Origin: Nitrospiraceae bacterium
Lineage (GTDB): Bacteria > Nitrospirota > Nitrospiria > Nitrospirales > Nitrospiraceae
Reading direction: 5' to 3'
Length of the DNA stretch: 64,000 nt
Assembly (NCBI GenBank): GCA_050246315.1
Contig: JBFWWG010000009.1
Span: 96,001-160,000, forward strand
Position 1 is the first letter of the stretch, and every line of letters begins with the position of its first letter. The translations under genes were made by a program, and so were the position numbers. Shown here in pieces: positions 8,654 to 36,288 of the stretch. The notes under the pieces are model-generated. The model saw nothing but the letters and a program-made list of their open reading frames with translations, was not told the origin of the DNA and searched no databases.

Positions 8654-9451
8654 ATGATGCGAATCGCCAACGTTGCGCGGCTGGCACTGGTCCTCGTGTT
8701 TCTCGTAATCGGACTCTCCCCTCCGGTGCAAGCGGCCGATCGGGAGAAGCTCCTCTCGGACTCGGGGGTGTTCGCCACATTCGCGGTCTTTTCGGTCGAT
8801 GAGGCCTGGTGGCGGCTGGATCGGGAGGCGCGGACGAAGGTCGGCGAGGAAATCAAAGGAGTGCTCGACAAGCATGGCGAGCAGGTGGTTGCAGACCTGT
8901 ATCTATTGCGGGGCCTGTCCGACCGGGCGGATCTGATGCTGCGCCTGCATTCGACCGAGCTTGCCCGGCATCAGCACGTGGTGCTCGATGTCTTGGCCAC
9001 GTCGCTCGGGCGCTATCTCCATCTCGTCTACACGTTTCACGGGATCACTAAGCCGGCGACCTATGTGCCGGGCTTTTCGGACGAGCTTAAAGCGACGATG
9101 AAGACCCCTCCCGATCCGGGGCCGAAACCCTATGCGATCGTGGTGCCGATCAGAAAAGACGCGGAATGGTGGAACCTGCCGCAGGCGGCGCGGTCGGAGA
9201 TGATGCAGGAACATGCGCAGGTCACGTCACCGTACTTAAAGACCGTGAAGCGCAAACTGTATCATGCGAGCGGTCTTGACGATCTGGACTTCATCACCTA
9301 TTTCGAGACGGCGAGGCTGGACGAGTTTCACAACTTGATCCTGGCACTGGAACGGATCAAGGAGAACCGGCATAACCGGCGGTTCGGCCATCCGACCCTC
9401 TTGGGAACCGTGTGTACGGTCGAGGAGCTCGCGGAGGTCTTTGCGCGATAA
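8654..9451 (+). CDS. cld: Chlorite dismutase (Nitrospira type), periplasmic
   Basis: Signal peptide, then ADREKLL; PIRKDAEWW, MQEH (proximal His), VKRKLYH (catalytic distal Arg), DFITYFET and RHNRRFGHPTLLGT closely match the N. defluvii Cld sequence as recalled. Confidence 0.92.
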   Translation: MMRIANVARLALVLVFLVIGLSPPVQAADREKLLSDSGVFATFAVFSVDEAWWRLDREARTKVGEEIKGVLDKHGEQVVADLYLLRGLSDRADLMLRLHSTELARHQHVVLDVLATSLGRYLHLVYTFHGITKPATYVPGFSDELKATMKTPPDPGPKPYAIVVPIRKDAEWWNLPQAARSEMMQEHAQVTSPYLKTVKRKLYHASGLDDLDFITYFETARLDEFHNLILALERIKENRHNRRFGHPTLLGTVCTVEELAEVFAR

Positions 9452-11732: not shown

Positions 11733-11831
11733 GGACGGTATTGTCCTTGAGCGGTAGGAAGTTTGTCAACGAAGCCGATTCATGATCTCGCTGGACAGAG
11801 CGGCAGGTCTCGCGTACAGTGCCGAGCCATT

Positions 11832-12167
11832 GTGTCACAGACGATCCGAGACATCCTGGACCAACTCCCTGGAAGGCTTGATTCCGAGGCGGCGGAAGGC
11901 GTCACGGCGGTCTATCAGTTTGAATTGAGCGATCCGGGCGGAGGTCGCTATTATCTGGTAATCGACGACGGGACCTGTTCCGTCACGGAGGGGAACCACC
12001 CTGATCCAGACGTGACGTTGGCGATGTCCGGCGCCGATGCCTTGGGGGTGCTGAGCGGCAATCTGTCCGGTCAGGCCATGGCGATGACCGGTCGCCTGAG
12101 TGTCAGCGGCGACATCGGTCTTGCCCTTCAATTGAAATCCCTGTTCCCCTCCGTGAAGACTTCCTGA
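11832..12167 (+). CDS. SCP2 sterol/lipid-binding domain protein
   Basis: VYQFELSDPGGGRYYLVIDDGTCSV...PDVTL...MTGRLSVSGDIGLALQL; GTG start assumed. Confidence 0.88.
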   Translation: MSQTIRDILDQLPGRLDSEAAEGVTAVYQFELSDPGGGRYYLVIDDGTCSVTEGNHPDPDVTLAMSGADALGVLSGNLSGQAMAMTGRLSVSGDIGLALQLKSLFPSVKTS

Positions 12168-18337: not shown

Positions 18338-18415
18338 GATCGGTAAGAATTGTCTGCGGCGGGGGGAGGAATATCGCCGGCAAAGCGGCGCAGCAACCGA
18401 CGGATGCGTCCCTGC

Positions 18416-19199
18416 TTACAGTAGCTGGACGATACCGGCCGAGAACGTCCTCAGATCTTCGAGCCGAGCTTGAATGATGTCGTAGATCTCATCGTAGTCG
18501 ATCTTCCAATAGACATGAATCAGGAGATTTCGGAATCGCGCCATCTGCCGAAGGCGATCGGCAAGGTCATGGGAAATAATATCGGTCTGCTCTAGCCCAC
18601 ATTATTCATGATGGTTCGTCACGAAACCGCGAAGTCGCCATGCGAGACGGGCGCGTGGAGATGCGAGGGAGGGAGGCATACTTGAAACAGTATGTTGACC
18701 GACCGAGCAGCGAGCCCGCCCGCCATACCGCACTTCGTGTGAGCCGGCGGCTCATCGGGCATAGTCCCTCTATACGAAGCTTCGCTTGGACCGTCGGCTA
18801 TTCATCGTATTTTCGTAGCTGCGCCGACGGAGAAGCACCCTACGGGCATGTCCCTTCCTCAGTGTTTGATACGCCGCCGGAGAAATCCCTTCGACCGGCC
18901 GGGCTTGTCGTAGCGGCGAATGCCCGGTTGCAGTAGAAGCATTCATGAATAATGTGGGCTAGCGCCGTGAAGCAGGCTGCATACTCTTCCGGAACACGCT
19001 GTAGCTGCTTGGCGGATACGTGAAAGCAGAGGGCCAACGCCGCTTCGATGGCGACCAGCAGTCGGTAACAGGCAATATCCAGCTTGTCTTGGTCCGCCAG
19101 GAATTGTTCACGAGAGCCAGAACGGAATTGTTCCAGCCGCGAAATCGCTGCCTCAATCTCTTCGCAGCGTGACCGAACCAGATCCGGGTTCAGCCTCAT
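18416..19199 (-). pseudogene. HepT-like (DUF86/HEPN) RNase toxin split by a MITE
   Basis: 5' part 19199-18963 (MRLNPD...CFTA) joined to 3' part 18595-18416 (LEQTDIISHDLADRLRQMARFRNLLIHVYWKIDYDEIY...) gives 138 aa with an Rx4H motif. Confidence 0.9.
18596..18958. mobile_element. MITE-like non-autonomous element, copy A (363 bp)
   Basis: Perfect 16-bp TIR CCCACATTATTCATGA / TCATGAATAATGTGGG flanked by CTAG on both sides; interrupts hepT; no transposase inside. Confidence 0.9.
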
Positions 19200-19645
19200 C
19201 CTGCGAACGCCTCTGCCGTGCTCCGCCGGAGGAGAGGGGCCAAGTCGAGGTATCGCCGGGCGACATCTTCCAAGGTGGCTGAAAGAAACCTCTCGTCCCG
19301 GCACAGGAGGAGGGATCCTCGGAGCACATGGTAGACGAAGGTCACCGGAGCCTCGTTGAGCACGCGGATGTCGACCGGCAATCCGAGCATTGAAGACAGC
19401 CGATCTTCCAGTTCAGCGGCGATTGACGAACTCCGTCCCGACGCCGACGGATGGAGATAGAGCCCAACGTCCACATCGTGGAACATCGTCTCGCTTAAAC
19501 AGGAACCATACAGATAGGCTACAGTCACCTCCGACTCCTTATCCAATTCGCGACTCAAGCCGGCCTGCAACTGAGCGAGCCGCTCCGTCGTCATCGGATA
19601 GGCCCGAGCGAACCTCGCACCCGTATCCTGCTCGTGGCGGTTCAT
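19196..19645 (-). CDS. MntA-like minimal nucleotidyltransferase antitoxin
   Basis: AYLYGS...HDVDVG (GS-DxD), VDIRVLNEAP; stop overlaps the hepT start (ATGA). Confidence 0.88.
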   Translation of the reverse strand: MNRHEQDTGARFARAYPMTTERLAQLQAGLSRELDKESEVTVAYLYGSCLSETMFHDVDVGLYLHPSASGRSSSIAAELEDRLSSMLGLPVDIRVLNEAPVTFVYHVLRGSLLLCRDERFLSATLEDVARRYLDLAPLLRRSTAEAFAG

Positions 19646-19724
19646 GTGGCGATGATACAACGCTGACGAGATGCGAACAAGCAACGTCCGGGGAGGCGAA
19701 CTCTGGAGGAGGGGAAGCGGGGGA

Positions 19725-21404
19725 TTACTGGCGCAGGTTGGCCCAGGCCTTCTGATACTCCTCGAAGGAATCGACCTCCATCCAGCCTTTGAAGATCGGG
19801 ACGGCCTGGACGCTGTGGCCTGCATCGATGAGGTCCTGAACCATGTCGGTGAAGGAAGCTTTGGCCAGACTCGGCGCTTCGTGGAACGGCCGGTCGGCGC
19901 GGGAGGACAAGGCGTTGCGGTAGAGGCCGGTCATCGCCTGGATGCCCTGTTCGGAAAACATCGCGAGGCCGATGAACTCCGCATGAGCCTGGTCGTGCGG
20001 CACGTGCTGCCCGATCTTGACGATCCGGTGGTCTTCTTCCGGCATCACGAACCGTGACAGGTAGCCGCGGCCCGGCGCCTGCTCGAAGGTCACGAGGTCC
20101 GGATTGATGTGTGGCGCTCTGGCCCCCTGCTGTTGGTGATCGTACCAGGCCAAGTCCACCACCAGCGAAATGTCCGCGGGGCTCTTCAGCAATTTTTCCA
20201 GGATCGCCAGGTCGAAGATGATGTCTCCGTAGAGCACGATGGTCCGCCCGCGCATTTCGTGCTCGGCGCAGAAGAGCGAGAAGAGCTCGCCTGTCTCTTC
20301 GTATCGGTCGTTATCGTAGTAGCGGACGTTCGGAAGCGTGATCGCCTCTTTTTTATAGCCCCGAATCAGGGCGATTTCCTTGATGTCGCAATCGTTCAAG
20401 GCCGCGATCTGGCGCTCCAGGATCGTCTTGCCCTTGATGTCCAGCAGGCATTTGGGCCGGTCTTCGATCAGCGGCAGCAGTTGCTTCTCGAATCCGGCGG
20501 CGGCAATGATGGCGGTGATCTTCTCGCTGCCCACCGGGAGGAATTTCTTTTCGTCCTGCTCCATTTGCGGGACGCCGACGATCTCGTAGACTTCCTTCAG
20601 CTTGACGATCCGGTCGTTGACCGAACCGGGTCTGGTATCCTGCTTGATTACGTCGAGCGCGTCGCGCATGGCCCTGATGCTGGCCCGCACCATCTGATTC
20701 GCGTAAATCACGATTTTGAACCCCGCCTCTTCCAGTTCCGCCGCCGTGACGCCGTCGAAAATCGTCGGGACTACGACGAGCGGGACCTGTCCCGACCAGC
20801 GTGCGGCTACGGTTCGGAGTTCGTCGAATGTCGGGGACTTGGAGTGGATCAGCACGGCGTCGGCGCCGGCGTCGGCGTAGGCTTGCGCCCGCTTTAGGGC
20901 CTCGTCCTGCCCCCAGCCCGCGATGAGCGCTTCCGTTCTGGCGATGACCATGAATTCGGGAATGGTCTGCGCGGCCTTGGCAGCCTGAATCTTTCCGCAA
21001 TGTTCCTCAACCGGGATAAGTTCTCGACGGACCCCTGCATAGAAACTACAGCGCTTGGGGTAGACGTTGTCTTCGATGCAGATGGCCGCCACGCCCGCGC
21101 GTTCCCGGTCGTTCACCGTGCGCATGACGTTCAGCGCGTTGCCGTAGCCGGTATCGCAGTCGGCAATGATCGGAATCGACACGGCCTCGGCGATGTTGCG
21201 CTCCACCTCAAGCTGTTCGCTCGAGGTGATGAAGCTGGCGTCGGGAATGCATTTCAAGGAGGCGGAGATCGCAAAGCCGCTGGCCCAGATGGCGTCGAAG
21301 CCCGCGCGTTCGATCAGCTTGGCGCTCAACGCGTCCTGGGCGCCGACGGCCTTGATGATGCCCGGTTGCTTGAGTAGGGTACGGAGTTTGACCGCGGGAT
21401 GCAT
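19725..21404 (-). CDS. PEP mutase-like (ICL/PEPM family) protein fused to a C-terminal cytidylyltransferase-like domain
   Basis: WASGF, DCDTGYGN, IEDNVYPKRCSF, IARTEALIAG, LIHSK; C-terminal AAAG...RPKCLLDIKGKTIL, YGDIIFD, WMEVDS. Confidence 0.85.
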   Translation of the reverse strand: MHPAVKLRTLLKQPGIIKAVGAQDALSAKLIERAGFDAIWASGFAISASLKCIPDASFITSSEQLEVERNIAEAVSIPIIADCDTGYGNALNVMRTVNDRERAGVAAICIEDNVYPKRCSFYAGVRRELIPVEEHCGKIQAAKAAQTIPEFMVIARTEALIAGWGQDEALKRAQAYADAGADAVLIHSKSPTFDELRTVAARWSGQVPLVVVPTIFDGVTAAELEEAGFKIVIYANQMVRASIRAMRDALDVIKQDTRPGSVNDRIVKLKEVYEIVGVPQMEQDEKKFLPVGSEKITAIIAAAGFEKQLLPLIEDRPKCLLDIKGKTILERQIAALNDCDIKEIALIRGYKKEAITLPNVRYYDNDRYEETGELFSLFCAEHEMRGRTIVLYGDIIFDLAILEKLLKSPADISLVVDLAWYDHQQQGARAPHINPDLVTFEQAPGRGYLSRFVMPEEDHRIVKIGQHVPHDQAHAEFIGLAMFSEQGIQAMTGLYRNALSSRADRPFHEAPSLAKASFTDMVQDLIDAGHSVQAVPIFKGWMEVDSFEEYQKAWANLRQ

Positions 21405-21412
21405 GGGCCCGC

Positions 21413-21441
21413 ACTATGGGCAAACGACGAAGCGTTGTCAA
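21413..21441 (-). promoter_or_regulatory. Sigma70-type promoter of the PEP mutase-like gene
   Basis: TTGACA-17 nt-CATAGT, 8 nt before the ATG. Confidence 0.65.
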
Positions 21442-21474
21442 TATCCGTGAGGCGCCACGTGGTATTCGAGGACA

Positions 21475-22032
21475 TCAATTGCGGGGCGTGGCGTCGCTCC
21501 TCGGGTAGAACCGCTGAGCCAAACTCTGGCTCTCGTAAAAGATAATACCCTGCTGGGTCTGCGGGTTGAAGGTCAGCATGATGTCGGTCTCGGGTCCCTT
21601 CCAGTTGAACGTCTGGATCGAGATGTTTGCGATCTGACCGGGTGTCCGGTCCAGGAGGCCGAACCTTGATTCAAGGTAGGCGACGATGCTCTTGTGGGCC
21701 TCCAGGCTCTGGTACCGTATGGTCACACGGGAAAACTTCCCGTCGATGGCGACGAATTTCATCGACTCGACCGGATGTCCGCCGAACGAAGGCGGACCGG
21801 ATTCCCGCTCATAGGTGACGATCCGGGGCGAGCGATCAACGACATGAAGATCGTCGGATTCCTTCAACTCGGCCCCCCAAGGAATGCCCTCGAAATCGCG
21901 CGGATCGTTGGTCATGGTCACCGCCTGCGCGGCCAGGAACGACCAGAGCGAGGCGACCAGCGCCAGACCCAGGCCCGCGCGCCACCGTCGCCTCGGACGC
22001 TGCGTAGGATGTACGTGGTTCGGGAGTGCCAC
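21475..22032 (-). CDS. Secreted hypothetical protein (paralog of neighbour)
   Basis: Signal peptide then MTNDPRDFEGIPWG...FNWKGPETDI. Confidence 0.75.
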   Translation of the reverse strand: MALPNHVHPTQRPRRRWRAGLGLALVASLWSFLAAQAVTMTNDPRDFEGIPWGAELKESDDLHVVDRSPRIVTYERESGPPSFGGHPVESMKFVAIDGKFSRVTIRYQSLEAHKSIVAYLESRFGLLDRTPGQIANISIQTFNWKGPETDIMLTFNPQTQQGIIFYESQSLAQRFYPRSDATPRN

Positions 22033-22053
22033 GGTGCTCCTTGGACGAGTGGC

Positions 22054-22587
22054 CTACTCGCCCGAATCGGTCAACGCATCGTTGAATCGAGGAGACAACA
22101 CGCGGCTTTCGATAAAGACGAACCCGCGTCCGCTCTGCGCTTGGAAGGTGACGTTGATCTCCGTTTCCGGTCCTCTCCAATTAAACTGTTGGTTGAGCCC
22201 GCGGACCATCTGTCCCGGAGTCTTGTCGAGGGCGCCGTATTGCTCCTCCAGGTACGCCATCACCTGCTGATGGGCGTCATTCCCGCGGTAGCGGATCGTC
22301 ACGCGCGCAAAACGATCTTGCCAGGCGGTGAAGGTGACGCTCTCCACAGGAATGGTTCCCAGCAATGGAGGGCCGTTCTTGCACTGATAGTCGGCCACGT
22401 CCTTGCTCGAATAGGTCTGCTGCACATCCGACCGGCCGGCCAGCGCATCGCCCCAACGGATGCCGAGAAAGCTGCCGGGGTCGTTGGTCATCTCCGCAGC
22501 CCCAGCCGGGACGACGAGGAGGACGAGCCAGGCGAGTCCCAAGAGAACCGAGATGCGCTGAGCCCCTGTGTGTGAGGCCTGTAGCAT
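22054..22587 (-). CDS. Secreted hypothetical protein (paralog of neighbour)
   Basis: Signal peptide then MTNDPGSFLGIRWG...FNWRGPETEI; start uncertain. Confidence 0.75.
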   Translation of the reverse strand: MLQASHTGAQRISVLLGLAWLVLLVVPAGAAEMTNDPGSFLGIRWGDALAGRSDVQQTYSSKDVADYQCKNGPPLLGTIPVESVTFTAWQDRFARVTIRYRGNDAHQQVMAYLEEQYGALDKTPGQMVRGLNQQFNWRGPETEINVTFQAQSGRGFVFIESRVLSPRFNDALTDSGE

Positions 22588-22721
22588 GGCGAACGCTAGC
22601 ACGGTCGGCCCGATCCGCGCAACGGACCGACGGGTGTGGAGGAGCACGGCGTAGGCATGACGATTGAGAATCGTCAAAGGGCTTGGCTATAATCCGTTTT
22701 CTTTATCGATGGCGAGGGGAC

Positions 22722-23237
22722 ATGACCGACGGCAACCAAATGATCGAGAGCGATGTCTTCGTCCAGGCGCTCCAAGAGATCGGAATCGAATTTTTTACCG
22801 GTGTGCCGGACTCTATTCTCGGCGGAATCATCGAAACCCTGATGGAGCGGCGCTTGTATGTGCCGGCCACGCGTGAGGATGAAGCGCTGGCCATGGCGGC
22901 CGGGGCTTATATGGCGGGGAAGGTCCCGGCCGTCTTGATGCAGAACTCAGGGCTGGGGACCTCGCTGAACACGCTGATCTCGTTGAATCTGATCTATCAG
23001 CAGCCCTGCGTGTTGATCGTGTCATGGCGCGGCTTTCAGGGGAAGGATGCGCCGGAGCATCTGGTGATGGGGCAAACCATGCCGCAGCTCCTGGATTTGA
23101 TGAAGATACCCCACCGGACGCTGTCCGCCGGCACATTTGCCGACGACCTGCGTTGGACGGCCGAAACCTTCATGAAGCAGCAGATCCCCCTGGCCCTGAT
23201 CATCAAGAAGGGCGTCATCAAGAGTTTGCATCCGTGA
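22722..23237 (+). CDS. Phosphonopyruvate/sulfopyruvate decarboxylase, alpha subunit (ThDP Pyr domain)
   Basis: FFTGVPDS, REDEALAMAAG, LMQNSGLG, SWRG...DAPEH; GAGGGG RBS; TATAAT at 22688. Confidence 0.88.
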   Translation: MTDGNQMIESDVFVQALQEIGIEFFTGVPDSILGGIIETLMERRLYVPATREDEALAMAAGAYMAGKVPAVLMQNSGLGTSLNTLISLNLIYQQPCVLIVSWRGFQGKDAPEHLVMGQTMPQLLDLMKIPHRTLSAGTFADDLRWTAETFMKQQIPLALIIKKGVIKSLHP

Positions 23238-23264
23238 GTGGGATCACAGAATGAGAGACCACCT

Positions 23265-23849
23265 ATGACACTCAGACCGGAACAAGGGGCCATGCAGAGC
23301 CGCGCGCGAGCCATGGAAGCCTTGCTAGAACTGCTGACCGATCAACCGGTCATTATCTGCAACGGATTTCCCTCCCGCGAGGCCTTCACGATCGCAGACC
23401 GGCCCACACACTTCTACATGATCGGGTCCATGGGCGTTGCCGCCGCCATCGGGTTGGGTGTGGCCCTCGCGAAGCCCCAGAAAAAGGTCGTCGTGTTCGA
23501 CGGCGACGGCAACGTTCTGATGGGAATGGGCACACTCGCGACGGTCGGCGCGACCAGACCGAAAAATCTTGTCCATGTCGTGTTCGACAACGAAGTCTAC
23601 GGCAGTACGGGCAATCAGCCGACTTATTCTCGGCTGGTCCGGCTGGATCTCGTGGCCAAGGCCGCGGGCTATGTCCATGTCGAGCGGGTAATCGAACGCG
23701 AGGACTTGGTGTATGAGTTCAAGGAGATGCTCGGTAAAGACGGGCCGAGCTTCCTGCTCGTGAAGGTCAACGAATGGGTGGAGGACGTCGGACGGGTTCT
23801 GCACGATCCTCCCGAGATCACGCAACGGTTCAAGAAGGCGATCGCATGA
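23265..23849 (+). CDS. Phosphonopyruvate/sulfopyruvate decarboxylase, beta subunit (ThDP-binding)
   Basis: GFPSRE, FYMIGSMG, DGDG...FDNEVYGSTGNQPT. Confidence 0.88.
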   Translation: MTLRPEQGAMQSRARAMEALLELLTDQPVIICNGFPSREAFTIADRPTHFYMIGSMGVAAAIGLGVALAKPQKKVVVFDGDGNVLMGMGTLATVGATRPKNLVHVVFDNEVYGSTGNQPTYSRLVRLDLVAKAAGYVHVERVIEREDLVYEFKEMLGKDGPSFLLVKVNEWVEDVGRVLHDPPEITQRFKKAIA

Positions 23850-23950
23850 CGTCAATCGTCAAGCGTCATTCGTCAACAGTAAGGCGAGATCATTATGGTG
23901 CTGATTCCAGCGGTCACCCTCGATTGACGAGTGACCAATGACGATTGACG
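23850..23950 (+). repeat. Inverted pair of 4x heptamer arrays (CGTCAAT / ATTGACG) forming a hairpin
   Basis: CGTCAAT-CGTCAAG-CGTCATT-CGTCAAC at 23850-23877; ATTGACG-AGTGACC-AATGACG-ATTGACG at 23923-23950. Confidence 0.88.
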
Positions 23951-23960
23951 GAGGTTTCCT

Positions 23961-25055
23961 GTGATCCTACTGAATCCCGGTCCAGTCAACGTGTCCGAAC
24001 GAGTCCGGCAGGCCCTGCATCGGCCGGATCTGTGCCACCGCGAGCGCGAGTTCACCGACCTGTTGCATCGTATCCAGGACAAGCTACTGAAGGCATTTGT
24101 GCCGGGCGCGGAGCACGACTACACCGCAGCCATCATCACGGGGTCCGGAACCTCGGCGGTGGAGGCCGCGATCGGATCGGCTCTCCCGCAAGGCAAGCGT
24201 TCTATGGTGATCAATAACGGCGTGTACGGCGACCGCATGTCGCAGATGACGCTGACCCACCGGATGGGTGTCCCGGACTTGAAGCTTGATTGGGGAAAGC
24301 GCCCCGACCCGGAGGTTGTGAGACTCGCCCTGCGGCAGCATCAAGAAGTCCACCTGGTGGCGATGGTACACCACGAGACGACGCTGGGACTGGTCAACCC
24401 GGCGAAGGAGATCGCCGACGTGGTTGACAGTCAGAACCGCGTGTTCATGCTCGATGCCGTCAGCAGCTTGGCCGGTGACCCATTGGATATCGCCGGCTCC
24501 CACATCTATCTGGTGGCCGGCACTTCGGGAAAATGCATCCAAGGGTTCCCGGGCGTCTCGTTCGTCCTCATCCGGCGCGGATTCTTGCAGCGCATGCGGA
24601 GCTACCCTCGGAAATCCTGGTACCTGCACCTGCCCCACTATCTGGACGATGAAGGTCGGCCGACGGTGCCCTTCACCCCCGCGGTGCAGGTCTATTATGC
24701 GTTCGACGAGGCCCTGTCCGAGCTGTTGGAGGAAGGGGTGCCGAAGCGGATCGAGCGGTATAAGCGTGCCGCGAAGCTGATTCGAGACCGGATGAAGACG
24801 CTCGGTCTCAAACCGGTGGTGCCGCCGGAGTTTCAGTCAAACACGCTGACCGCCTACCACCTGCCGGAGGGCCTGAGCTACGATCTGTTACATGACCGCC
24901 TCAAAGAGCGGGGCTACGTGATCTATGCCGGTCAAGGCCAGCTCGAGTCCAAGATTTTCCGCGTGGCCAACATGGGGGTCTTGTCGGCACAAGACCTGGA
25001 AGGGTTTCTGGCCGCCTTTCAGGAGGTGCTGGAACAGGCAGCGGTGTCTCGTTGA
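23961..25055 (+). CDS. Class V aminotransferase, 2-aminoethylphosphonate transaminase-like
   Basis: LLNPGP, DLCHRE, GSGTSAVEA, NNGVYG, VHHETT, DAVSS, SGKCIQGFPG (PLP Lys), PFTP, GYVIYAG. Confidence 0.87.
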   Translation: MILLNPGPVNVSERVRQALHRPDLCHREREFTDLLHRIQDKLLKAFVPGAEHDYTAAIITGSGTSAVEAAIGSALPQGKRSMVINNGVYGDRMSQMTLTHRMGVPDLKLDWGKRPDPEVVRLALRQHQEVHLVAMVHHETTLGLVNPAKEIADVVDSQNRVFMLDAVSSLAGDPLDIAGSHIYLVAGTSGKCIQGFPGVSFVLIRRGFLQRMRSYPRKSWYLHLPHYLDDEGRPTVPFTPAVQVYYAFDEALSELLEEGVPKRIERYKRAAKLIRDRMKTLGLKPVVPPEFQSNTLTAYHLPEGLSYDLLHDRLKERGYVIYAGQGQLESKIFRVANMGVLSAQDLEGFLAAFQEVLEQAAVSR

Positions 25056-25774
25056 AGGCCGTCATCCTCGCCGCCGGTATCGGCAAGCGGCTCTGGGACA
25101 TTACGCAGCACCGACCCAAATGTTTGATCGAGTTCGCCGGCAAGAGCCTTCTCGTTCGCCATCTGGAACACCTGGCCTCCCAGGGTGTGCAGCGGGCCAC
25201 CGTGGTCGTCGGCTACAAGCAGGAGATGATTCGGAACGCCATTGGAACAGTTCATGCGGGAGTGGATCTGACGTATCTCGTCAATGACCAGTATCACCGC
25301 GGGAGCATCTCCTCGCTGTGGTTGGCGCGAACGGAGTTCGACGACGATGCGATCGTGATGGATGCCGACGTGTTGTACCATCGAGATATCATGAAGCGGC
25401 TGATCCACTCGCCCTATGCGAACTGTTTGTTAATGGACGAGACGGTCGTCCAGCAGGGCGAAGAGTGCATGGTGGTCGTGCGGGGAGGGCGGGTGATTGC
25501 GCTCACGAAGCGGGTCCCTTCCGTGTATGATTATGCGGGGGAAGGCGTCGGTTTTCTCAAGGTTGGCCGCCAGGACGCGGAGCACCTGGTCGGCTCGCTG
25601 CGGGCGCACATCGATCGAGGTGCCTGGGAGATGGAATATGAAGACGGGCTGCTCGAATTTTTTGACCGGGTCCGCGTGGGCCACGAAAAAATCGGTGGGC
25701 TGCCCTGGACCGAGATCGACTTCCCGGAGGACGTGACCCGTGCGGAACGGGAAATCCTGCCGAAGCTGGACTAA
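25052..25774 (+). CDS. Phosphocholine/phosphonate cytidylyltransferase family (LicC/PntC-like)
   Basis: KAVILAAGIGKRL, RPKCL, MDADV, WTEIDFPED. Confidence 0.88.
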   Translation: MKAVILAAGIGKRLWDITQHRPKCLIEFAGKSLLVRHLEHLASQGVQRATVVVGYKQEMIRNAIGTVHAGVDLTYLVNDQYHRGSISSLWLARTEFDDDAIVMDADVLYHRDIMKRLIHSPYANCLLMDETVVQQGEECMVVVRGGRVIALTKRVPSVYDYAGEGVGFLKVGRQDAEHLVGSLRAHIDRGAWEMEYEDGLLEFFDRVRVGHEKIGGLPWTEIDFPEDVTRAEREILPKLD

Positions 25775-25828
25775 GCCACTCGGTCGCGTTAGAGTGCCGA
25801 AAGACAGGCCGACCCTGGATACGGAACG

Positions 25829-27328
25829 ATGAGTCAGAGTGCGCTGCAACGCTTTGCCCAGACCCGAGAACTGACCTCCGCGATTGTGGTGACGGCGCGC
25901 AACGTCTTCACCTCCACGCCCGTCTCAGTCCACACCGGCATCAGCCCGCTCACCCGAATCGCCGGCGTGACGATCTTTCAGCGCGGCATCCTGACCCTGC
26001 AGCGGGCCGGCGTGAACCAGATTTTTGTGTTGGCGGGTGACGAAGCGGAAACGCTCAAAGCGGTCGTACGCGACGGGCCGCCGATCACGGCGGGCATCCG
26101 GTGGATTCCGGTCCGGGAGTTCCCGCTCGACGACCCCCGGACATGGGAAACACTGGCGGCCGACGCCAAAGGCGCCTGCCTCGTGATTGGGCCGCAGGCC
26201 GCTTTTTCGCGAAACCTGATCGAAACGTTGCGTGGCAAGGGGCCGATCGAGGACCTCCTGCTCGTGTTGCAGCCCGACGAGCGCCATCGGACCGCGCCTG
26301 GTCGTTCCGATCGTGCCGATCGCGTGTTGCCGACGAAACGGGATCGTCTGGCTCGATTGGCTGCCATCGGGTTGGGCGGAGAACGAGAGATGCGCGAAGC
26401 CCGTTCCGGACGCGTCGCGGCCGAGGTACTCGTTCTGCCCGCCGGTCTACTTTCAAACGGACATTCTTTCGTCGATGCCCTGCTTGCTCAATCAGGGGAG
26501 GAACACCGAGGGGATGGCGAGCCGCTCCTGTCCCGACTCGTCGGGTTGGCAGCGGCAGAACGACGCATTCAGGTTGTTGAAGCGGCGCGGGATGCCAACC
26601 TCTGGGCGAGGGACATTCACGACGAACGGGACGCGTCGGCGGTCGAGCGGGATCTCTATCGCTCCTTTAAGAACCATTCCGAAGGGTTCATCGATCGGTA
26701 TTTTAATCGGAAGCTTTCTCCATTCTTCACCAAGCTCTTCTTAAAGCTGAAACTGAGCCCCAACGCGGTCACGGTACTGGCCACCCTGATCGGGCTGGCC
26801 GGCGCGGCTTCCTTCGGGATGGGGACATACGAGGCCGGTCTGCTGGGAGCCCTCCTGTTTCAATTGGCCGCGGTGATCGACTGTTGCGACGGCGAGGTGG
26901 CGAGGCTGACGTTCACAGAGTCCCCGTTGGGAGCCAAGCTCGATCTCGCTCTCGACAACGTGGTGCACATGGCGGTATTTGCCGGCATCGCCTACGGCGC
27001 CTATGAGACGCAGGATGCGAGCGGGGAGGCGTGGCTGTACCTGGCACTTGGCGCGGTGGCGGTCGTCTCCAATGCCCTGGCCTTCTGGCTGGTCACAAGG
27101 CTGACTGCGAAGCCGAGCGGGGCCATCCCGGGCTCAACCGCGCGGGCCAGATGGAAGGATTTTATTCTCAAGAACATCGCGACACGTGATTTTTCCATGA
27201 TCGTGCTGCTCTTCGCCGTGATCGGTCGTCTGGATTGGTTCCTGCTCTTGGCGGTCATCGGATCGGCCTTCTTCGGTCTGGTGCTGACCTGGCTGGTTTT
27301 CTCGACCCGCTCCGCTCGTGCTTCTTAA
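25829..27328 (+). CDS. CDP-alcohol phosphatidyltransferase with degenerate N-terminal NTP-transferase-like domain
   Basis: SPNAVT, DCCDGEVAR...GAKLDLALD signature; C-terminal TM helices. Confidence 0.88.
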   Translation: MSQSALQRFAQTRELTSAIVVTARNVFTSTPVSVHTGISPLTRIAGVTIFQRGILTLQRAGVNQIFVLAGDEAETLKAVVRDGPPITAGIRWIPVREFPLDDPRTWETLAADAKGACLVIGPQAAFSRNLIETLRGKGPIEDLLLVLQPDERHRTAPGRSDRADRVLPTKRDRLARLAAIGLGGEREMREARSGRVAAEVLVLPAGLLSNGHSFVDALLAQSGEEHRGDGEPLLSRLVGLAAAERRIQVVEAARDANLWARDIHDERDASAVERDLYRSFKNHSEGFIDRYFNRKLSPFFTKLFLKLKLSPNAVTVLATLIGLAGAASFGMGTYEAGLLGALLFQLAAVIDCCDGEVARLTFTESPLGAKLDLALDNVVHMAVFAGIAYGAYETQDASGEAWLYLALGAVAVVSNALAFWLVTRLTAKPSGAIPGSTARARWKDFILKNIATRDFSMIVLLFAVIGRLDWFLLLAVIGSAFFGLVLTWLVFSTRSARAS

Positions 27329-28322
27329 AATTACCCTCCTCGCCGTCGGGACCCTCACCCTGACGGCCCTCGTGTGGCACATTGGGCCGACCCGCATCCT
27401 GGATGCCGCCGGGCAAGTCGGGCCGCTCGGCCTGCTACTGGTGTTACTCCCGTCGCTGGTCATGTACCTGCTCGAAGCCTACGGTTGGAAATTGACCATG
27501 GGGCCCTATGCCGGGGCCGTTTCCTTTCCGCACCTGTTGGCCATCCGGACGGCCGGTGAAGTCGTCAACATGACCACGCCGACCGCCTATGTAGGCGGCG
27601 AGCCGCTCAAAGCCTATCTGCTCAAACGTGCAGAGGTCCCGTTCGTCGACGGATTGGCCTCGGTCGTGCTGGCGAAGACCCTGATGACGATCGCGCAGGT
27701 ACTGTTCATCCTGTTAGGGCTGGTGATCGCGTTCTGGCTGCTCGGATCGGAAGGGTCCTCCGGGCAGATGGTGATGGCCTCCATCGTCAGTGTCGGCATC
27801 TTGGCGTTCGGCGTCGCCGGCTTCATCGCAGTGCAGCGATGGGGCCTATTCACCGGTGCGCTTGGGCTGTTGCGGAGAGTCAATCTCCGAGTGGCCTACC
27901 TCGAAGCTCGGGAAAGCAAGCTGCGCGAACTGGACCGGACGATCCTGAATTTCTACGCCAAGGATCGGCGGAATTTTCTCTGCTCCACGGGATTGTATTT
28001 CGGCGGCTGGCTCGCTGAGGCCGTGGAAGTCTACGTGATGCTGGCCTGCCTCGGCCTTCCCGTGACGGCTCTCGCGGCGCTCGCCATCGGATCGCTGTCG
28101 GCCTTCATCAAGGGCGGGACCTTCTTCATTCCCGGGAGCTTGGGCGCACAGGATGGAGGCAATCTCCTCCTGGTCACGGCGTTCGGCTACAGCGACGTGG
28201 CCGGCATCACCTTCGCTCTGCTGCGACGCTTCCGCGAGATCGTCTGGATCGGCATCGGTCTGGTATGCCTGGCCCTGTTGGATGGGCGGACGGTGGCAAG
28301 TCGAGGCGATCAATCAGGCTGA
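27318..28322 (+). CDS. Flippase-like protein (lysylphosphatidylglycerol synthase TM / UPF0104)
   Basis: Multi-TM; NMTTPTAYVGGEPLKAYLL, IPGSLGAQDGG, LLRRFRE. Confidence 0.85.
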   Translation: MLLKITLLAVGTLTLTALVWHIGPTRILDAAGQVGPLGLLLVLLPSLVMYLLEAYGWKLTMGPYAGAVSFPHLLAIRTAGEVVNMTTPTAYVGGEPLKAYLLKRAEVPFVDGLASVVLAKTLMTIAQVLFILLGLVIAFWLLGSEGSSGQMVMASIVSVGILAFGVAGFIAVQRWGLFTGALGLLRRVNLRVAYLEARESKLRELDRTILNFYAKDRRNFLCSTGLYFGGWLAEAVEVYVMLACLGLPVTALAALAIGSLSAFIKGGTFFIPGSLGAQDGGNLLLVTAFGYSDVAGITFALLRRFREIVWIGIGLVCLALLDGRTVASRGDQSG

Positions 28323-32737: not shown

Positions 32738-34735
32738 ATGATGAGGGCCTTCCTTTGGGGTTCCCTTTCGATCCTTGGTGCAATCGCGCTCGCCCACGTC
32801 ACCGGCCTCGTCAATCCCCACGAAAAAGTGAACGGACTCTGGCTGGTCGTGGCGGCGGCGTGCATCTATGTGCTGGCCTTCCGGTTTTATGGCCGGTGGA
32901 TCGCCCGGCGCGTGGTCGAGCTTGACGATCGGCGGATCACCCCCGCGGTCCGACTGAACGACGGGGTCAATTACCACCCCACCAACAAGGCCGTGCTGTT
33001 CGGCCATCACTTCGCGGCCATCGCCGGTGCCGGTCCGTTACTCGGTCCGGTGCTGGCAGCGCAGTTCGGCTTCCTGCCGGGCTTTCTCTGGCTGGTGATC
33101 GGCGCGGTGCTGGCTGGCGCGGTGCAGGATTTCATCATCTTGGTTGCCTCGATGCGTCGCAATGGCCGGTCGCTTCCGGAGATCGCGCGTGACGAGTTGG
33201 GGTTGGTCACCGGGACAGCCACCGCCGTCGCGGTGTTATTCATTGTCGTGGTGGCGCTGGCCGGTTTAGGGTTCGCGGTTGTCAATGCACTGTATCGGAA
33301 TGCTTGGGGTACCTTCACCATTGCGATGACGATCCCTATCGGCTTCGTCATGGGGTTGTATCTCCAGCGATTGCGCCCCGGCCGGATCGTCGAGGTGTCG
33401 CTGCTCGGCATCGTCCTGCTGGTTGCCGCGGTGCTGTCCGGCCGCCTCGTCGCGCAGTCGTCTCTTGCTTGGCTGTTTGAATTCGAGCGACCGACCCTGG
33501 TTTGGTTGCTGGCCGGCTATGGCTTTCTTGCCTCGGTACTGCCCGGCTGGATGTTGCTGGTGCCGCGTGGCTACCTCTCCACCTTTATGAAGCTGGGCGT
33601 GGTGTTCCTCCTGGGCGTCGGTGTGATCCTGATGGCTCCGACGATCGAAATGCCGCGTGTGACCATCTTTGCTCGCGGCGGCGGGCCAATTATTCCGGGC
33701 ACGCTCTTCCCGTTCCTCTTTATCACGATCGCCTGCGGGGCCGTGTCCGGCTTTCATGCGCTCGTCTCCTCCGGCACCACGCCGAAGATGATCGAACAGG
33801 AATCCCAGGCGACGGTCGGCTACGGCGCAATGTTGCTGGAAAGTTTCGTGGGCGTCATGGCGCTGATTGCCGCGTCGGTGCTGATCCCGGGCGATTACCT
33901 GGCGATCAACACGATGTTGTCGTTCGAATCACTGGCCTCGATGGGTTTCCCTGTCTCGCGAGTTCAGGAACTGTCTCAGTTGGTGGAGGTGGATGTGGTC
34001 GGTCGGCCGGGCGGGGCGGTCTCGCTCGCGGTCGGCATGGCGTCCATTTTTGCGGCGCTCCCTGGCATGGCCGGCTTGATGGCCTATTGGTATCAGTTTG
34101 CGCTGGTGTTCGAGGCACTGTTCATCCTGACCACGATCGATACCGGCACGAGGGTGGCTCGCTATCTGATTCAAGAAATGGCTGGACGGCTCTATCCTCC
34201 CTTTCGCCGCATGAATTGGTGGCCCGGCGTTCTGTTGAGCAGCGGCTTGGTGGTAGGAGGGTGGGGTTACCTCATTGGGACCGGGAGCATTTCGACAATC
34301 TGGCCGATGTTCGGCGCGGCGAATCAATTGCTCGGCACTTTGGCTCTTTGCATCGGGACTACAGTCTTGATCAAAATGTGGAAGTCGCAGTATCTCTGGG
34401 TGACGGCGGTGCCGATGCTGTTCGTGGGGGCGATCACATTGACCGGCTCCTATGAGATGTTCGGCCTGTTCCTGTCAAAAGCGGCGACGCTCGGAGCAAG
34501 CGGCCAGGCCTTTGCTCTTTACCTGGATGCTGTGCTTGTGGCGGCGGTAGCGATCTTGGGCGTGATCGTTCTGGTGGACGGTTTGAGACAGTGGTATGGC
34601 TACATCATCTTAAAGCGGCCCTTTACCAGCAGCGAAGTGGTCGCCATGGCCGGGGCGGGATCGGCCGGGCGCATGCAACCGACCATGCGGGATGAGTCGG
34701 AGGGTTTCCATATTCCAGGCGGAGGCTGTTGCTAG
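32738..34735 (+). CDS. cstA: Carbon starvation protein A (peptide/pyruvate transporter)
   Basis: TPAVRLNDG, FGHHFAAIAGAGPLLGP, FITIACGAVSGFHAL, WPMFGAANQLL. Confidence 0.95.
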   Translation: MMRAFLWGSLSILGAIALAHVTGLVNPHEKVNGLWLVVAAACIYVLAFRFYGRWIARRVVELDDRRITPAVRLNDGVNYHPTNKAVLFGHHFAAIAGAGPLLGPVLAAQFGFLPGFLWLVIGAVLAGAVQDFIILVASMRRNGRSLPEIARDELGLVTGTATAVAVLFIVVVALAGLGFAVVNALYRNAWGTFTIAMTIPIGFVMGLYLQRLRPGRIVEVSLLGIVLLVAAVLSGRLVAQSSLAWLFEFERPTLVWLLAGYGFLASVLPGWMLLVPRGYLSTFMKLGVVFLLGVGVILMAPTIEMPRVTIFARGGGPIIPGTLFPFLFITIACGAVSGFHALVSSGTTPKMIEQESQATVGYGAMLLESFVGVMALIAASVLIPGDYLAINTMLSFESLASMGFPVSRVQELSQLVEVDVVGRPGGAVSLAVGMASIFAALPGMAGLMAYWYQFALVFEALFILTTIDTGTRVARYLIQEMAGRLYPPFRRMNWWPGVLLSSGLVVGGWGYLIGTGSISTIWPMFGAANQLLGTLALCIGTTVLIKMWKSQYLWVTAVPMLFVGAITLTGSYEMFGLFLSKAATLGASGQAFALYLDAVLVAAVAILGVIVLVDGLRQWYGYIILKRPFTSSEVVAMAGAGSAGRMQPTMRDESEGFHIPGGGCC

Positions 34736-34744
34736 GAGATCACC

Positions 34745-35242
34745 ATGGCGGATCAATTTTCATTCGATGTCGTATCGGAAGTGAACATGCAGGAGATGAA
34801 GAACGTCGTCGATCAGGCGACGAAGGAGATCAAGCAGCGATTCGACTTCAAGGACTCCAAGACGGAGATCACGCTGAAGGAGAAGGAAAAGGAACTGGTC
34901 GTGATCTCCGATGACGACTATAAGTTGAATGCGGTGAACGAGATTATCAAGGCGAAATGCGTCAAGCGCGGCGTCTCGCTCAAGGCCCTGAACTACGGCG
35001 CGATCGAGCCGGCGTTAGGGGGAACGGTCCGGCAGGTCGTCAAGATTCAGAGCGGCATCGTGGCGGACAAGGCTAAGGAGATCACCAGGTCCGTAAAGGA
35101 CTCGAAGCTGAAAGTGCAGGCGCAGATCCAAGGCGAGCAAGTCCGCATCGTGAGCAAGAGCAAGGATGAACTCCAATCCGCCATCGCCTTCTTGAAACAG
35201 CAAGACTTCGGGATCGATCTCCAGTTCACGAACTACCGGTAA
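34745..35242 (+). CDS. yajQ: YajQ family nucleotide/c-di-GMP-binding protein
   Basis: SFDVVSEV, RFDFK, KVQAQIQGEQVR, LQFTNYR. Confidence 0.95.
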   Translation: MADQFSFDVVSEVNMQEMKNVVDQATKEIKQRFDFKDSKTEITLKEKEKELVVISDDDYKLNAVNEIIKAKCVKRGVSLKALNYGAIEPALGGTVRQVVKIQSGIVADKAKEITRSVKDSKLKVQAQIQGEQVRIVSKSKDELQSAIAFLKQQDFGIDLQFTNYR

Positions 35243-36288
35243 TGCGCGACCTATCACGCGGCTTGCCTTGGGCAGCCGGCCCCTGCTTAGTGCTGTTCTT
35301 CCTGCTTCTGCTGACGGGGTGCGGCGGCAGTGACGCCATTGTCGTGATCGCCGCCCACCCGCAGAACCCCAACATCCTCTACGTGGCGACCAACGACTAT
35401 ATCTATAAGACACGCGACTCGGGGCAGACCTGGGAGAATATTTCGAGGGGAATGACGCATTCGCGCGTCATTGCGCTGGCCATTGATCCGGCCTACCCGG
35501 CCACGGTCTACGCCGGCACCAAGGGCGATGCGATCTTCAAGAGTCACAATGGCGGCCAGTCATGGGTATCGAAACGGGCCGGGTTGGACGACGTGACGAT
35601 CAGCTCCGTCGTGAATCAATTCGTGTTCGATCCCCAGGACGCCAACCACGTCTATGTTGCGACGACCATGGGGGTCTCCGAATCGAAGGACGGTGGCGAT
35701 ATTTGGCGCAAACGGATGGAGGGAATGAAGGAAGTGTTGATGGTCGTCACGCTCTGTTTGGACCCTACCAGGCCGAACATCATGTATGCAGGCACGAGCG
35801 GCGGCGTGTACCGCAGTTTCTCCGGGGCCGAGATTTGGGAGAAGACCAACGAGGGACTCGTCCCGGCCGAATTGGTGAAATCGAGCCGTGCCCTGGGCGT
35901 GACGATGATCGAGGTTGACCGTTTCGAGCCTGACACGGTCTATGCGGCAACGCTCAACGGCCTCTACAAATCGGTGGACAAGGGCGCGATGTGGAAGCGG
36001 ATCGGGGAGAAGCTGACGGACCCCATTATTCCCGTGATGGTGCTGGATCGAACCCGAAGGGGCGTTCTCTATATTGCCGGGCGGTTTGGTGTGCTGCGTA
36101 GCGAGGACGGAGGTGACACCTGGCAGCCAGTCAATCAGGGGTTGGCCACATTGAATGTGCGCTCGCTCGTGCAGAGCCCGATCAATTCGAACCTATATTA
36201 TCTCGGCACGAACGGCAGCGGCATGTATCGGAGCGAGGATGCGGGGGCAACGTGGCATGCGATGCCGCCGGTGAAAGCCAAAACCTGA
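35242..36288 (+). CDS. BNR/VPS10-like beta-propeller lipoprotein
   Basis: Lipobox LTGC; repeated Asp-box (S/T-x-D-x-G-x-x-W) motifs. Confidence 0.85.
   Translation: MRDLSRGLPWAAGPCLVLFFLLLLTGCGGSDAIVVIAAHPQNPNILYVATNDYIYKTRDSGQTWENISRGMTHSRVIALAIDPAYPATVYAGTKGDAIFKSHNGGQSWVSKRAGLDDVTISSVVNQFVFDPQDANHVYVATTMGVSESKDGGDIWRKRMEGMKEVLMVVTLCLDPTRPNIMYAGTSGGVYRSFSGAEIWEKTNEGLVPAELVKSSRALGVTMIEVDRFEPDTVYAATLNGLYKSVDKGAMWKRIGEKLTDPIIPVMVLDRTRRGVLYIAGRFGVLRSEDGGDTWQPVNQGLATLNVRSLVQSPINSNLYYLGTNGSGMYRSEDAGATWHAMPPVKAKT

Follow-up and report, generated by a model that had tools for sequence, protein, structure and literature searches.

A predicted 2-aminoethylphosphonate head-group pathway with a non-canonical PEP mutase-family enzyme in Nitrospiraceae

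Described phosphonolipid clusters and the Nitrospiraceae locus

Clusters of the 'Burkholderiales_CDP-OH' type, or Group 1 phosphonolipids (Yu et al., 2013, as summarised in PMC8942020), are the closest described counterparts of the gene cluster analysed here, which lies in a stretch of 64,000 nucleotides from a Nitrospiraceae bacterium (contig JBFWWG010000009.1; hereafter the window, to whose positions all coordinates refer) and includes a fusion of a phosphoenolpyruvate (PEP) mutase-family domain to a nucleotidyltransferase. According to the available part of PMC8942020, Group 1 clusters comprise genes for PEP mutase (Ppm or PepM), phosphonopyruvate decarboxylase (Ppd), a 2-aminoethylphosphonate (AEP) transaminase, an oxygenase, two PntC cytidylyltransferases, one of them fused to Ppm, and two phospholipid proteins, and the lipid product of this cluster type is uncharacterised in any organism; in the accessible text of PMC5987646, the Nostoc version includes hpnL. 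Such fusions are common, since about 60% of Ppm enzymes are joined to nucleotidyltransferases, the most frequent Ppm architecture in the available text of Rice et al. (2019; PMC6697681). The same text describes the Pnt pathway of Treponema denticola and Atopobium rimae, in which a LicC-like cytidylyltransferase (PntC) activates AEP as CMP-AEP. Furthermore, the motif EDKx5NS is required for acceptance as PepM in three surveys, as far as their available parts go (PMC6697681; PMC8942020; and PMC12723261, an actinomycete survey of 2025), and in the first of them PF13714 proteins without it, 22 fused ones among them, were discarded as presumed non-Ppm.

Judged by its gene content, the cluster in the window is a Nitrospirales version of the published Group 1 design minus the oxygenase, a cluster type whose prediction can already be found in the accessible parts of PMC8942020 and PMC5987646. 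Common to both, on the basis of those parts, are a Ppm-PntC fusion, Ppd, AEP transaminase, a second PntC, a CDP-alcohol transferase, and an hpnL-type protein. The seven-gene core described for Group 1 has an alpha-ketoglutarate/Fe(II) oxygenase, whereas no Pfam family of alpha-ketoglutarate-dependent Fe(II) oxygenases was found among the open reading frames (ORFs) scanned across the window; therefore, the expected head group is AEP and not 1-hydroxy-AEP. Moreover, the window departs from the Group 1 set, as described there, in having a split Ppd, two additional small secreted paralogues, and a Ppm without EDKx5NS, so that the motif filter of the surveys, as far as it is documented, would exclude this enzyme. 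We call it Cys-type, after its loop EDN-x5-CS, and we assign a probability of about 0.75 to the reading that the cluster encodes a pathway for an AEP head group that feeds a membrane transferase, in which the Cys-type enzyme replaces the canonical PepM. We found no report of this Nitrospira cluster or of mutases lacking the motif in the literature, a search on which closed bioRxiv supplements could bear, and the word 'Nitrospira' does not occur in the available supplementary text of PMC6697681.

The genome (4.39 Mb, 100% complete), whose close relatives at the protein level carry the names Nitrospira or Nitrospiraceae, contains all the genes that an earlier note on this DNA had named, i.e., the fusion, a split thiamine diphosphate (ThDP) decarboxylase, the transaminase, a cytidylyltransferase, the transferase, and a flippase-like gene, each at the position given there (Table 1). 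From about position 22683, six tightly packed genes run on the plus strand from Ppd alpha to the flippase-like gene, with the start of the gene for the cytidylyltransferase NT2 overlapping the transaminase gene by 4 bases. The fusion gene had been described as divergent from this operon, which is right as to the opposite strands but not as to direct divergence, since they are separated by the two paralogous small ORFs, which share the strand of the fusion gene.

Table 1. Genes of the cluster and neighbouring features in the window
Feature	Position	Strand	Family or model
PEP-mutase-family/nucleotidyltransferase fusion, 559 aa	19725..21404	-	PF13714, PF12804
Small secreted or lipoprotein-like paralogue 1, 185 aa	21475..22032	-	no Pfam family
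Small secreted paralogue 2, at most 207 aa	22054..22677	-	40% identical to paralogue 1
Ppd alpha subunit	22683..23237	+	TPP_enzyme_N, TIGR03297 132.2 bits
Ppd beta subunit	23238..23849	+	TPP_enzyme_C, TIGR03297 180.6 bits
AEP aminotransferase, class V	23961..25055	+	TIGR03301 342.5 bits
PntC-like cytidylyltransferase NT2, 240 aa	25052..25774	+	PF00483, PF12804
Membrane CDP-alcohol transferase, 499 aa	25829..27328	+	PF01066 38.8 bits, C-terminal half
HpnL/MprF-flippase-like membrane protein, 334 aa	27318..28322	+	PF03706 104.5 bits
MntA/HepT-type toxin-antitoxin pair (two ORFs)	19196..19825 and 18840..19304		both under NCBIfam cut-offs
Segment containing the toxin-antitoxin pair, 1.39 kb	18340..19730		
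SCP2 sterol/lipid-carrier-family gene	11763..12167		
Chlorite-dismutase-family gene	8654..9451		

One operon, two kinds of PEP mutase-family enzyme

A natural swap of Cys-type and canonical enzymes around one operon is the chief piece of new evidence. In a scan of genome contigs, which matched the EDN/EDS pattern in roughly 500 species genomes, the best 80 of 499 were kept as loci, all from Nitrospiraceae/Nitrospirota except one 3-kb contig labelled Planctomycetaceae and one labelled 'uncultured bacterium'. Of these best 80, 44 extend for 7.5 kb or more on the upstream side of the fusion gene; they formed the synteny set, and every one of them (44/44) had Ppd alpha, Ppd beta, the transaminase, NT2, and the flippase-like gene. 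The transferase was detected in 40 at the first threshold and in the other four at a relaxed one (lower identity, or the membrane half only), so that the genes of the operon are conserved together in all 44 related Nitrospiraceae loci. This gene arrangement is far from chance, and the loci include a Cys-type cluster in the cultured Nitrospira moscoviensis NSP M-1.

The two mutase types were then tallied in one evenly drawn sample of 121 family genomes, in which three unpublished genomes (G206, G246, and G264) were counted only. The Cys-type fusion occurred in 69 genomes (73-100% identity, some of the matches being fragments), and in 68 of them it was the only type; a canonical fusion, 34-40% identical, occurred in 34, alone in 33; and 19 genomes had neither. 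In the five fetched loci where the loop of the canonical fusion was located, it reads EDKLFPKTNS. The transferase followed the mutases, being present in 98 and absent in four of the genomes with either type, and present in five and absent in 14 of those with none; the nine discordant genomes are all at most 90% complete. Orthologues of the transaminase (E<=1e-60) were likewise found in 28/28 genomes of this family (f1) and 12/12 of the sister family (f2), and in 0/160 genomes from the remaining families sampled in the phylum.

In all 12 canonical-type genomes that were fetched, the paralogues, Ppd alpha, Ppd beta, transaminase, NT2, transferase, and flippase-like gene occur in the same order as in the window, with subunits 57-82% identical to those of the window, and a TetR gene flanks the paralogues in eight of the 12, as it does here. 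No PEP mutase-family gene was found beside the operon in any of these 12 loci, including the position that the fusion gene occupies in the window; the canonical PepM-PntC gene lies elsewhere, 2.1 Mb away in one closed genome. Furthermore, the split pair of the operon was the only Ppd-family match genome-wide in 4/4 canonical-type genomes whose canonical PepM has no Ppd next to it. Because a textbook PepM in these genomes has only the decarboxylase of the operon at its disposal, the operon is identified as a phosphonopyruvate-consuming AEP pathway, from which it would follow that the Cys-type gene fills the role of PepM where the canonical gene is missing. Thus, on comparative grounds, the Cys-type enzyme most likely supplies phosphonopyruvate.

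The canonical PepM-PntC genes of other Nitrospirales differ in their surroundings. At one locus (L004, G059:C1:2830000-2849999), the gene has as neighbours a single-chain Ppd (495 bits) and genes for polysaccharide export, namely two Poly_export/SLBB proteins and one GNVR/AAA_31 protein, and at another (L005) it adjoins an aldo-keto reductase. These genomes may also make a second, glycan-type phosphonate.

A proposed route from phosphoenolpyruvate to a membrane product

The earlier note had proposed a complete route from PEP through a CMP-AEP head group to a membrane transferase, and this proposal has held up on domain content, on synteny, and on the complementary distribution of Cys-type and canonical mutases around one orthologous operon, the acceptor being presumably a lipid. 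As the first step, the Cys-type domain of the fusion would convert PEP into phosphonopyruvate; the two-subunit ThDP enzyme, to judge from homology and from the sister genomes, would then turn phosphonopyruvate into phosphonoacetaldehyde, a decarboxylation that would pull the unfavourable mutase equilibrium forward. By homology, the class V aminotransferase should yield AEP, and NT2, perhaps together with the fused LicC-like domain, should form CMP-AEP from CTP and AEP. The transferase, which is of the AF2299/DIPPS type, may next pass the aminoethylphosphonyl group of CMP-AEP to a lipid hydroxyl, most simply that of diacylglycerol, with release of CMP, and the HpnL/MprF-like protein may finally flip the product to the outer leaflet.

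Several observations weigh against this pathway, or against parts of it. The fusion does not carry the signature motif, having EDNVYPKRCS at the EDKx5NS site of PepM, and its 278.0 and 280.4 bits on the PepM equivalog model TIGR02320 stay under the cut-off of 319.55; both features agree with the earlier description of the enzyme as a non-canonical PEP mutase. In its available part, the review PMC7916636, which names Asp58, Asp85, Asp87, Glu114, Ser123, Arg159, and His190 as catalytic, gives the exchange Asn122Thr as most authors' explanation for the difference between PEP mutase and phosphonopyruvate hydrolase (PPH); since this position is held to decide between mutase and hydrolase, the altered residue 122 of the Cys-type enzyme falls on a sensitive site. 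Phylogenetically, Cys-type proteins stand outside the canonical clade in unresolved order, so their position in the tree gives no proof of mutase function. Moreover, no Ppd was found within 10 kb at some Cys-type loci outside the Nitrospira-like set (for example, L108, L109, L111, and L122), and one genome of the 121 (G239; 96% complete, 700 contigs) carries both mutase types. A further genome, G065 (100% complete; L187, G065:C2:207000-226900), keeps TetR, the paralogues, Ppd alpha, Ppd beta, and the transaminase, while NT2, the transferase, the flippase-like gene, and any mutase are gone from the locus; the transaminase is followed there directly by CstA, DUF520, and a BNR-repeat gene, whose counterparts in the window lie about 4 kb farther on (32738-36288). 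Its only PF13714 match is weak (36.6 bits), and two more genomes of the genus show the same weak match alone. This locus looks like a decaying cluster and shows that Ppd and transaminase may be retained in the absence of a mutase, if only as a remnant. Finally, the closest solved relatives of the transferase use soluble CDP-alcohols, DIPPS also a soluble acceptor, and we found no chemical evidence for phosphonates in Nitrospira in the literature.

The last steps leave most room for another outcome, in which the same pathway to AEP and CMP-AEP ends on an acceptor other than diacylglycerol, candidates being hopanoid polyols, glycolipids or glycans, and soluble polyols of the kind used by DIPPS; we regard this as a minority possibility, to be kept in mind. 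The transaminase matches the PhnW-AepZ model TIGR03301 over its full length (2-356), below the cut-off of 360.8 bits. NT2 has a classical N-terminal AAGxGxRL motif and, among solved structures, is closest to 6PD1 (60.7 bits, aligned over residues 2-238), an entry that its depositors titled 'Nucleotidyl transferase/aminotransferase, class V' and that we take to be the PntC of Treponema denticola, a likeness to the Pnt pathway. The PF01066 (CDP-OH_P_transf) score of the transferase is above the cut-off of 22, and its residues 351-376 (DCCDGEVARLTFTESPLGAKLDLALD) contain the full catalytic motif D(x)2DG(x)2AR(x)8G(x)3D(x)3D. Its closest solved relatives are AF2299 (4O6M, 64.7 bits) and IPCT/DIPPS (4MND, 56.9 bits) and not CDP-diacylglycerol enzymes, which speaks for another acceptor. 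Like these Archaeoglobus proteins, it has a cytoplasmic nucleotidyltransferase-like domain ahead of a CDP-alcohol phosphotransferase membrane domain in which the motif is complete, and in both systems the polar CDP-alcohol donor is attributed to a cytidylyltransferase, separate or fused. It differs from them in scoring only 84.6 bits on the IPCT/DIPPS model NF041135 (NT2, 85.5 bits; cut-off, 580 bits), in the absence of the glycine-rich nucleotide-binding motif from its N-terminal domain of about 270 aa, which is degenerate (weak nucleotidyltransferase match at residues 9-97, E 0.0086), and in its donor and acceptor, presumably CMP-AEP and a lipid.

The flippase-like protein matches both the PF03706 (LPG_synthase_TM) and the TIGR00374 (80.2 bits) models and reaches 164.2 bits on the HpnL model TIGR03476, under its cut-off of 195.65. 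No other HpnL-model match occurs in this genome, which also has a squalene-hopene cyclase (785 bits, on a different contig), a combination that would fit a hopanoid acceptor, just as the polysaccharide export genes beside canonical PepM-PntC in sister genomes would fit a glycan. Against these options, probing 170 loci (L003-L172) for a squalene-hopene cyclase, the one hopanoid gene probed, found no homologue within flanks of about 10 kb; the operon contains no glycosyltransferase; and an MprF-type flippase-like domain together with a polytopic transferase suits a lipid product. A hopanoid linkage of the cluster, examined by this single probe, was thus not confirmed, the cyclase being elsewhere in the genome.

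We consider it unlikely, and less probable than a different acceptor, that the Cys-type domain is no PEP mutase at all but catalyses a lyase- or hydrolase-type reaction, in which case the product of the cluster would not be AEP or phosphonopyruvate would come from some other source. Residues 1-290 of the fusion form the PEP mutase-family domain (PF13714, 193 bits) and residues 296-559 a LicC/PntC-like nucleotidyltransferase domain (PF12804 NTP_transf_3, MobA-like, 33 bits; best solved match LicC, 1JYK, 42 bits), i.e., a partner of the same kind as in canonical Ppm-PntC fusions, which argues against such a role. The best solved relatives of the mutase domain are the Streptomyces PepM 5UNC (285 bits), PPH 2DUA (236 bits), and the Mytilus PepM 1M1B (214 bits), all of the same fold family, and their metal, carboxylate, and phosphoryl ligands are kept in the window enzyme. 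In the alignment, Asp58, Asp85, Asp87, Glu114, Lys120, Ser123, Arg159, and His190 are identical to Mytilus PepM, among them the His-Ser-Lys and Arg residues characteristic of both PepM and PPH; we take Lys120 of the Mytilus enzyme to be catalytic. Among the catalytic positions compared, the sole differences in Mytilus numbering are Lys116, replaced by Asn, and Asn122, replaced by Cys, where PPH has Thr. A lyase or hydrolase would agree with the missing EDKx5NS motif and the TIGR02320 score, and with the loop itself, which resembles the KRCGH loop of methylisocitrate lyases and whose PKRCS is like the PKRCGH of a PrpB-like paralogue in the same genome (EDQELPKRCGH). Conservation of this loop is strict: EDNV[YF]PKRCS was found in 121/121 sequences, comprising the query and its 120 best homologues (79-98% identity), as EDNVYPKRCS in 116 and EDNVFPKRCS in five.

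A wider search of the mutase domain against 1.84 billion representatives, from which the query and the best 150 sequences were typed, returned EDKx5NS in 87 of the 151, EDNx5CS in 22 (query included), EDNx5NS in 14, EDSx5CS in two, the PPH pattern EDKx5TS in one, and other variants in 25. For a FastTree phylogeny of 136 sequences, a query-biased sample rooted on five lyase-motif sequences, at least 240 aligned domain residues were required, which removed 16 sequences, and the lyase-type paralogue of this genome was added. All 81 EDKx5NS sequences fell within one clade of 93 (support 0.90) that contains no Cys-type member, and the 18 Cys-type sequences lay outside it with a PPH-type sequence, in several small clades with supports of 0.19-0.51. 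As judged from this tree, the Cys-type proteins form a lineage of their own, diverse in itself, and did not arise from canonical PepM by recent mutation; their grouping with a PPH-type sequence also suits a non-mutase. On the other side, no canonical PepM was found in this genome, which has only the Cys-type gene and the lyase-motif paralogue, and no match above the PepM cut-off in 5/5 further Cys-type genomes (99% complete), so other candidates from the family are absent in all six that were checked. Together with a distribution complementary to that of canonical PepM around one orthologous operon, this favours a mutase, i.e., a C-P-forming enzyme of the PEP mutase lineage with what would be a lyase-like gating loop.

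Cys-type fusions outside Nitrospira bear on the same question. In a metagenome scan seeded with diverse Cys-type proteins (80 loci kept, many short), a Ppd homologue accompanied 16 of 31 Cys-type nucleotidyltransferase fusions that are not Nitrospira-like, 10 of 12 canonical fusions, and none of four PPH-type genes; the Cys-type members without a neighbouring Ppd are in keeping with a non-mutase. With flanks of at least 4 kb, Ppd was present at 7/7 canonical fused loci and at nine of 14 Cys-type loci; among these 14, seven had a transaminase, eight a further nucleotidyltransferase, five a CDP-alcohol transferase, and three a flippase-like gene. Ppd beside Cys-type genes was never fused (12 split, four partial, none fused). 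At two of the loci without Ppd, L108 (456-2950) and L109 (9152-13766), the Cys-type fusion is divergent to a short-chain dehydrogenase (SDR), and at L109 there are, in addition, genes for an SCP2 protein and a CDP-alcohol transferase of 244 aa; the SDR may be another way of pulling the equilibrium, or may mark a different early branch point.

The decarboxylase of the operon is, by its profile scores and its sister-genome context, a Ppd and not a ComDE. The alpha subunit starts at TTG 22683 or ATG 22722, orthologues in most loci aligning from residue 20; it covers positions 1-156 of the Ppd profile TIGR03297 (cut-off, 312.5 bits) and scores 112.7 bits on the ComD model TIGR03845 (cut-off, 147.95). 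On the ComE model TIGR03846 (cut-off, 221.5), the beta subunit reaches 187.8 bits, slightly above its Ppd score, and it matches PDB 9IZ3 (107.6 bits), a solved structure of a two-subunit Ppd deposited as 'putative phosphonopyruvate decarboxylase beta subunit'. Each half alone is below the Ppd cut-off, and the two read through one TGA reach 320.7 bits, above it. The same near-tie recurs in 5/5 split beta subunits beside canonical PepMs (Ppd 175-189 bits, ComE 160-187), so the resemblance to ComE is a general trait of split Ppds, and in 6/6 beta subunits beside Cys-type genes the Ppd score is at least that of ComE. The sulfonate route that the earlier note had offered as its alternative, with a ComDE-type sulfopyruvate decarboxylase and a taurine-type head group, has that slight ComE preference of the beta subunit in its favour and can be set aside as highly improbable, because both Com models stay under their cut-offs, the read-through pair passes as Ppd, the near-tie is shared by betas beside canonical PepMs, the orthologous pair is the sole Ppd in 4/4 genomes with a canonical PepM, and nucleotidyl and CDP-alcohol transfer require a phosphate or phosphonate group, which taurine does not have.

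Secreted paralogues, transcription, and significance

The two small paralogues have signal-peptide-like N-termini; the start of paralogue 2 is uncertain, with an internal ATG near 22587 being likely. Both are present in 43 of the 44 loci of the synteny set, the 44th having a partial match, and in the sister family f2 the operon is present without them (L188 and L189). A Pfam search found no family for either, and the Atlas clusters that match them are unnamed and confined to Nitrospirota. Across 54 copies, positions with Asp, Trp, Arg, Tyr, and Gly are invariant. An AlphaFold2 model of paralogue 1 (pLDDT, i.e., predicted local distance difference test, 82.2) shows a domain of a beta-sheet plus two helices, for which Foldseek gave no match at E<=0.001 (best E 0.026) and VIA-align a best Z of 7.5, to the YdcD double-wing domain, which is in the range of no real match.

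Parts of the stretch were contained in 18 RNA-library runs from eight studies, and contigs over the cluster were found in 4/4 examined runs from four studies. One of these runs contained a sequence-identical contig over the fusion gene (19718-21386, 1.67 kb) and another contig bridging the Ppd beta and transaminase genes (23288-24847). These data are consistent with transcription of the cluster and are not proof of it, since contigs carry no level, strand, transcript ends, or expression ranking and DNA can occur in RNA libraries.

Elsewhere, the window carries an RND efflux system, a chlorite-dismutase-like gene, the gene for polyphosphate kinase, and the dcw cell-division cluster. Beyond the RND efflux system, at a distance of about 7.5 kb from the cluster, there is a gene of the SCP2 sterol/lipid-carrier family, and the chlorite-dismutase-family gene lies farther out. 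Next to the fusion gene, the segment with the MntA/HepT-type toxin-antitoxin pair is missing from the closest related locus (L013), where an unrelated segment of 0.87 kb occupies its place; no such pair was found in any of the 80 related loci.

Returning to the AEP pathway with a Cys-type mutase, the interest of the finding lies in this Cys-loop lineage and in its breadth across a key nitrifier group, and the swap provides a clean, testable genotype pair. A bolder reading, that EDN-x5-CS enzymes are a second, mechanistically distinct solution to C-P bond formation, in the form of a deep PEP mutase-family lineage that retains the lyase-type Cys gating loop while producing phosphonopyruvate, that motif-based censuses miss a whole class of phosphonate producers, and that an undetected AEP lipid, possibly built on a non-glycerol acceptor such as a hopanoid polyol, exists in Nitrospirales, is speculative and in our view rather improbable as a whole. 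If the Cys-type enzymes are mutases, surveys based on the motif undercount phosphonate producers, including 69 of the 121 sampled Nitrospiraceae species genomes. Nitrospiraceae drive nitrite oxidation in soils, waters, and treatment plants, and Nitrospirales are globally abundant nitrifiers; in such organisms, a C-P lipid would withstand phosphatases and phospholipases and would feed the environmental phosphonate pool.

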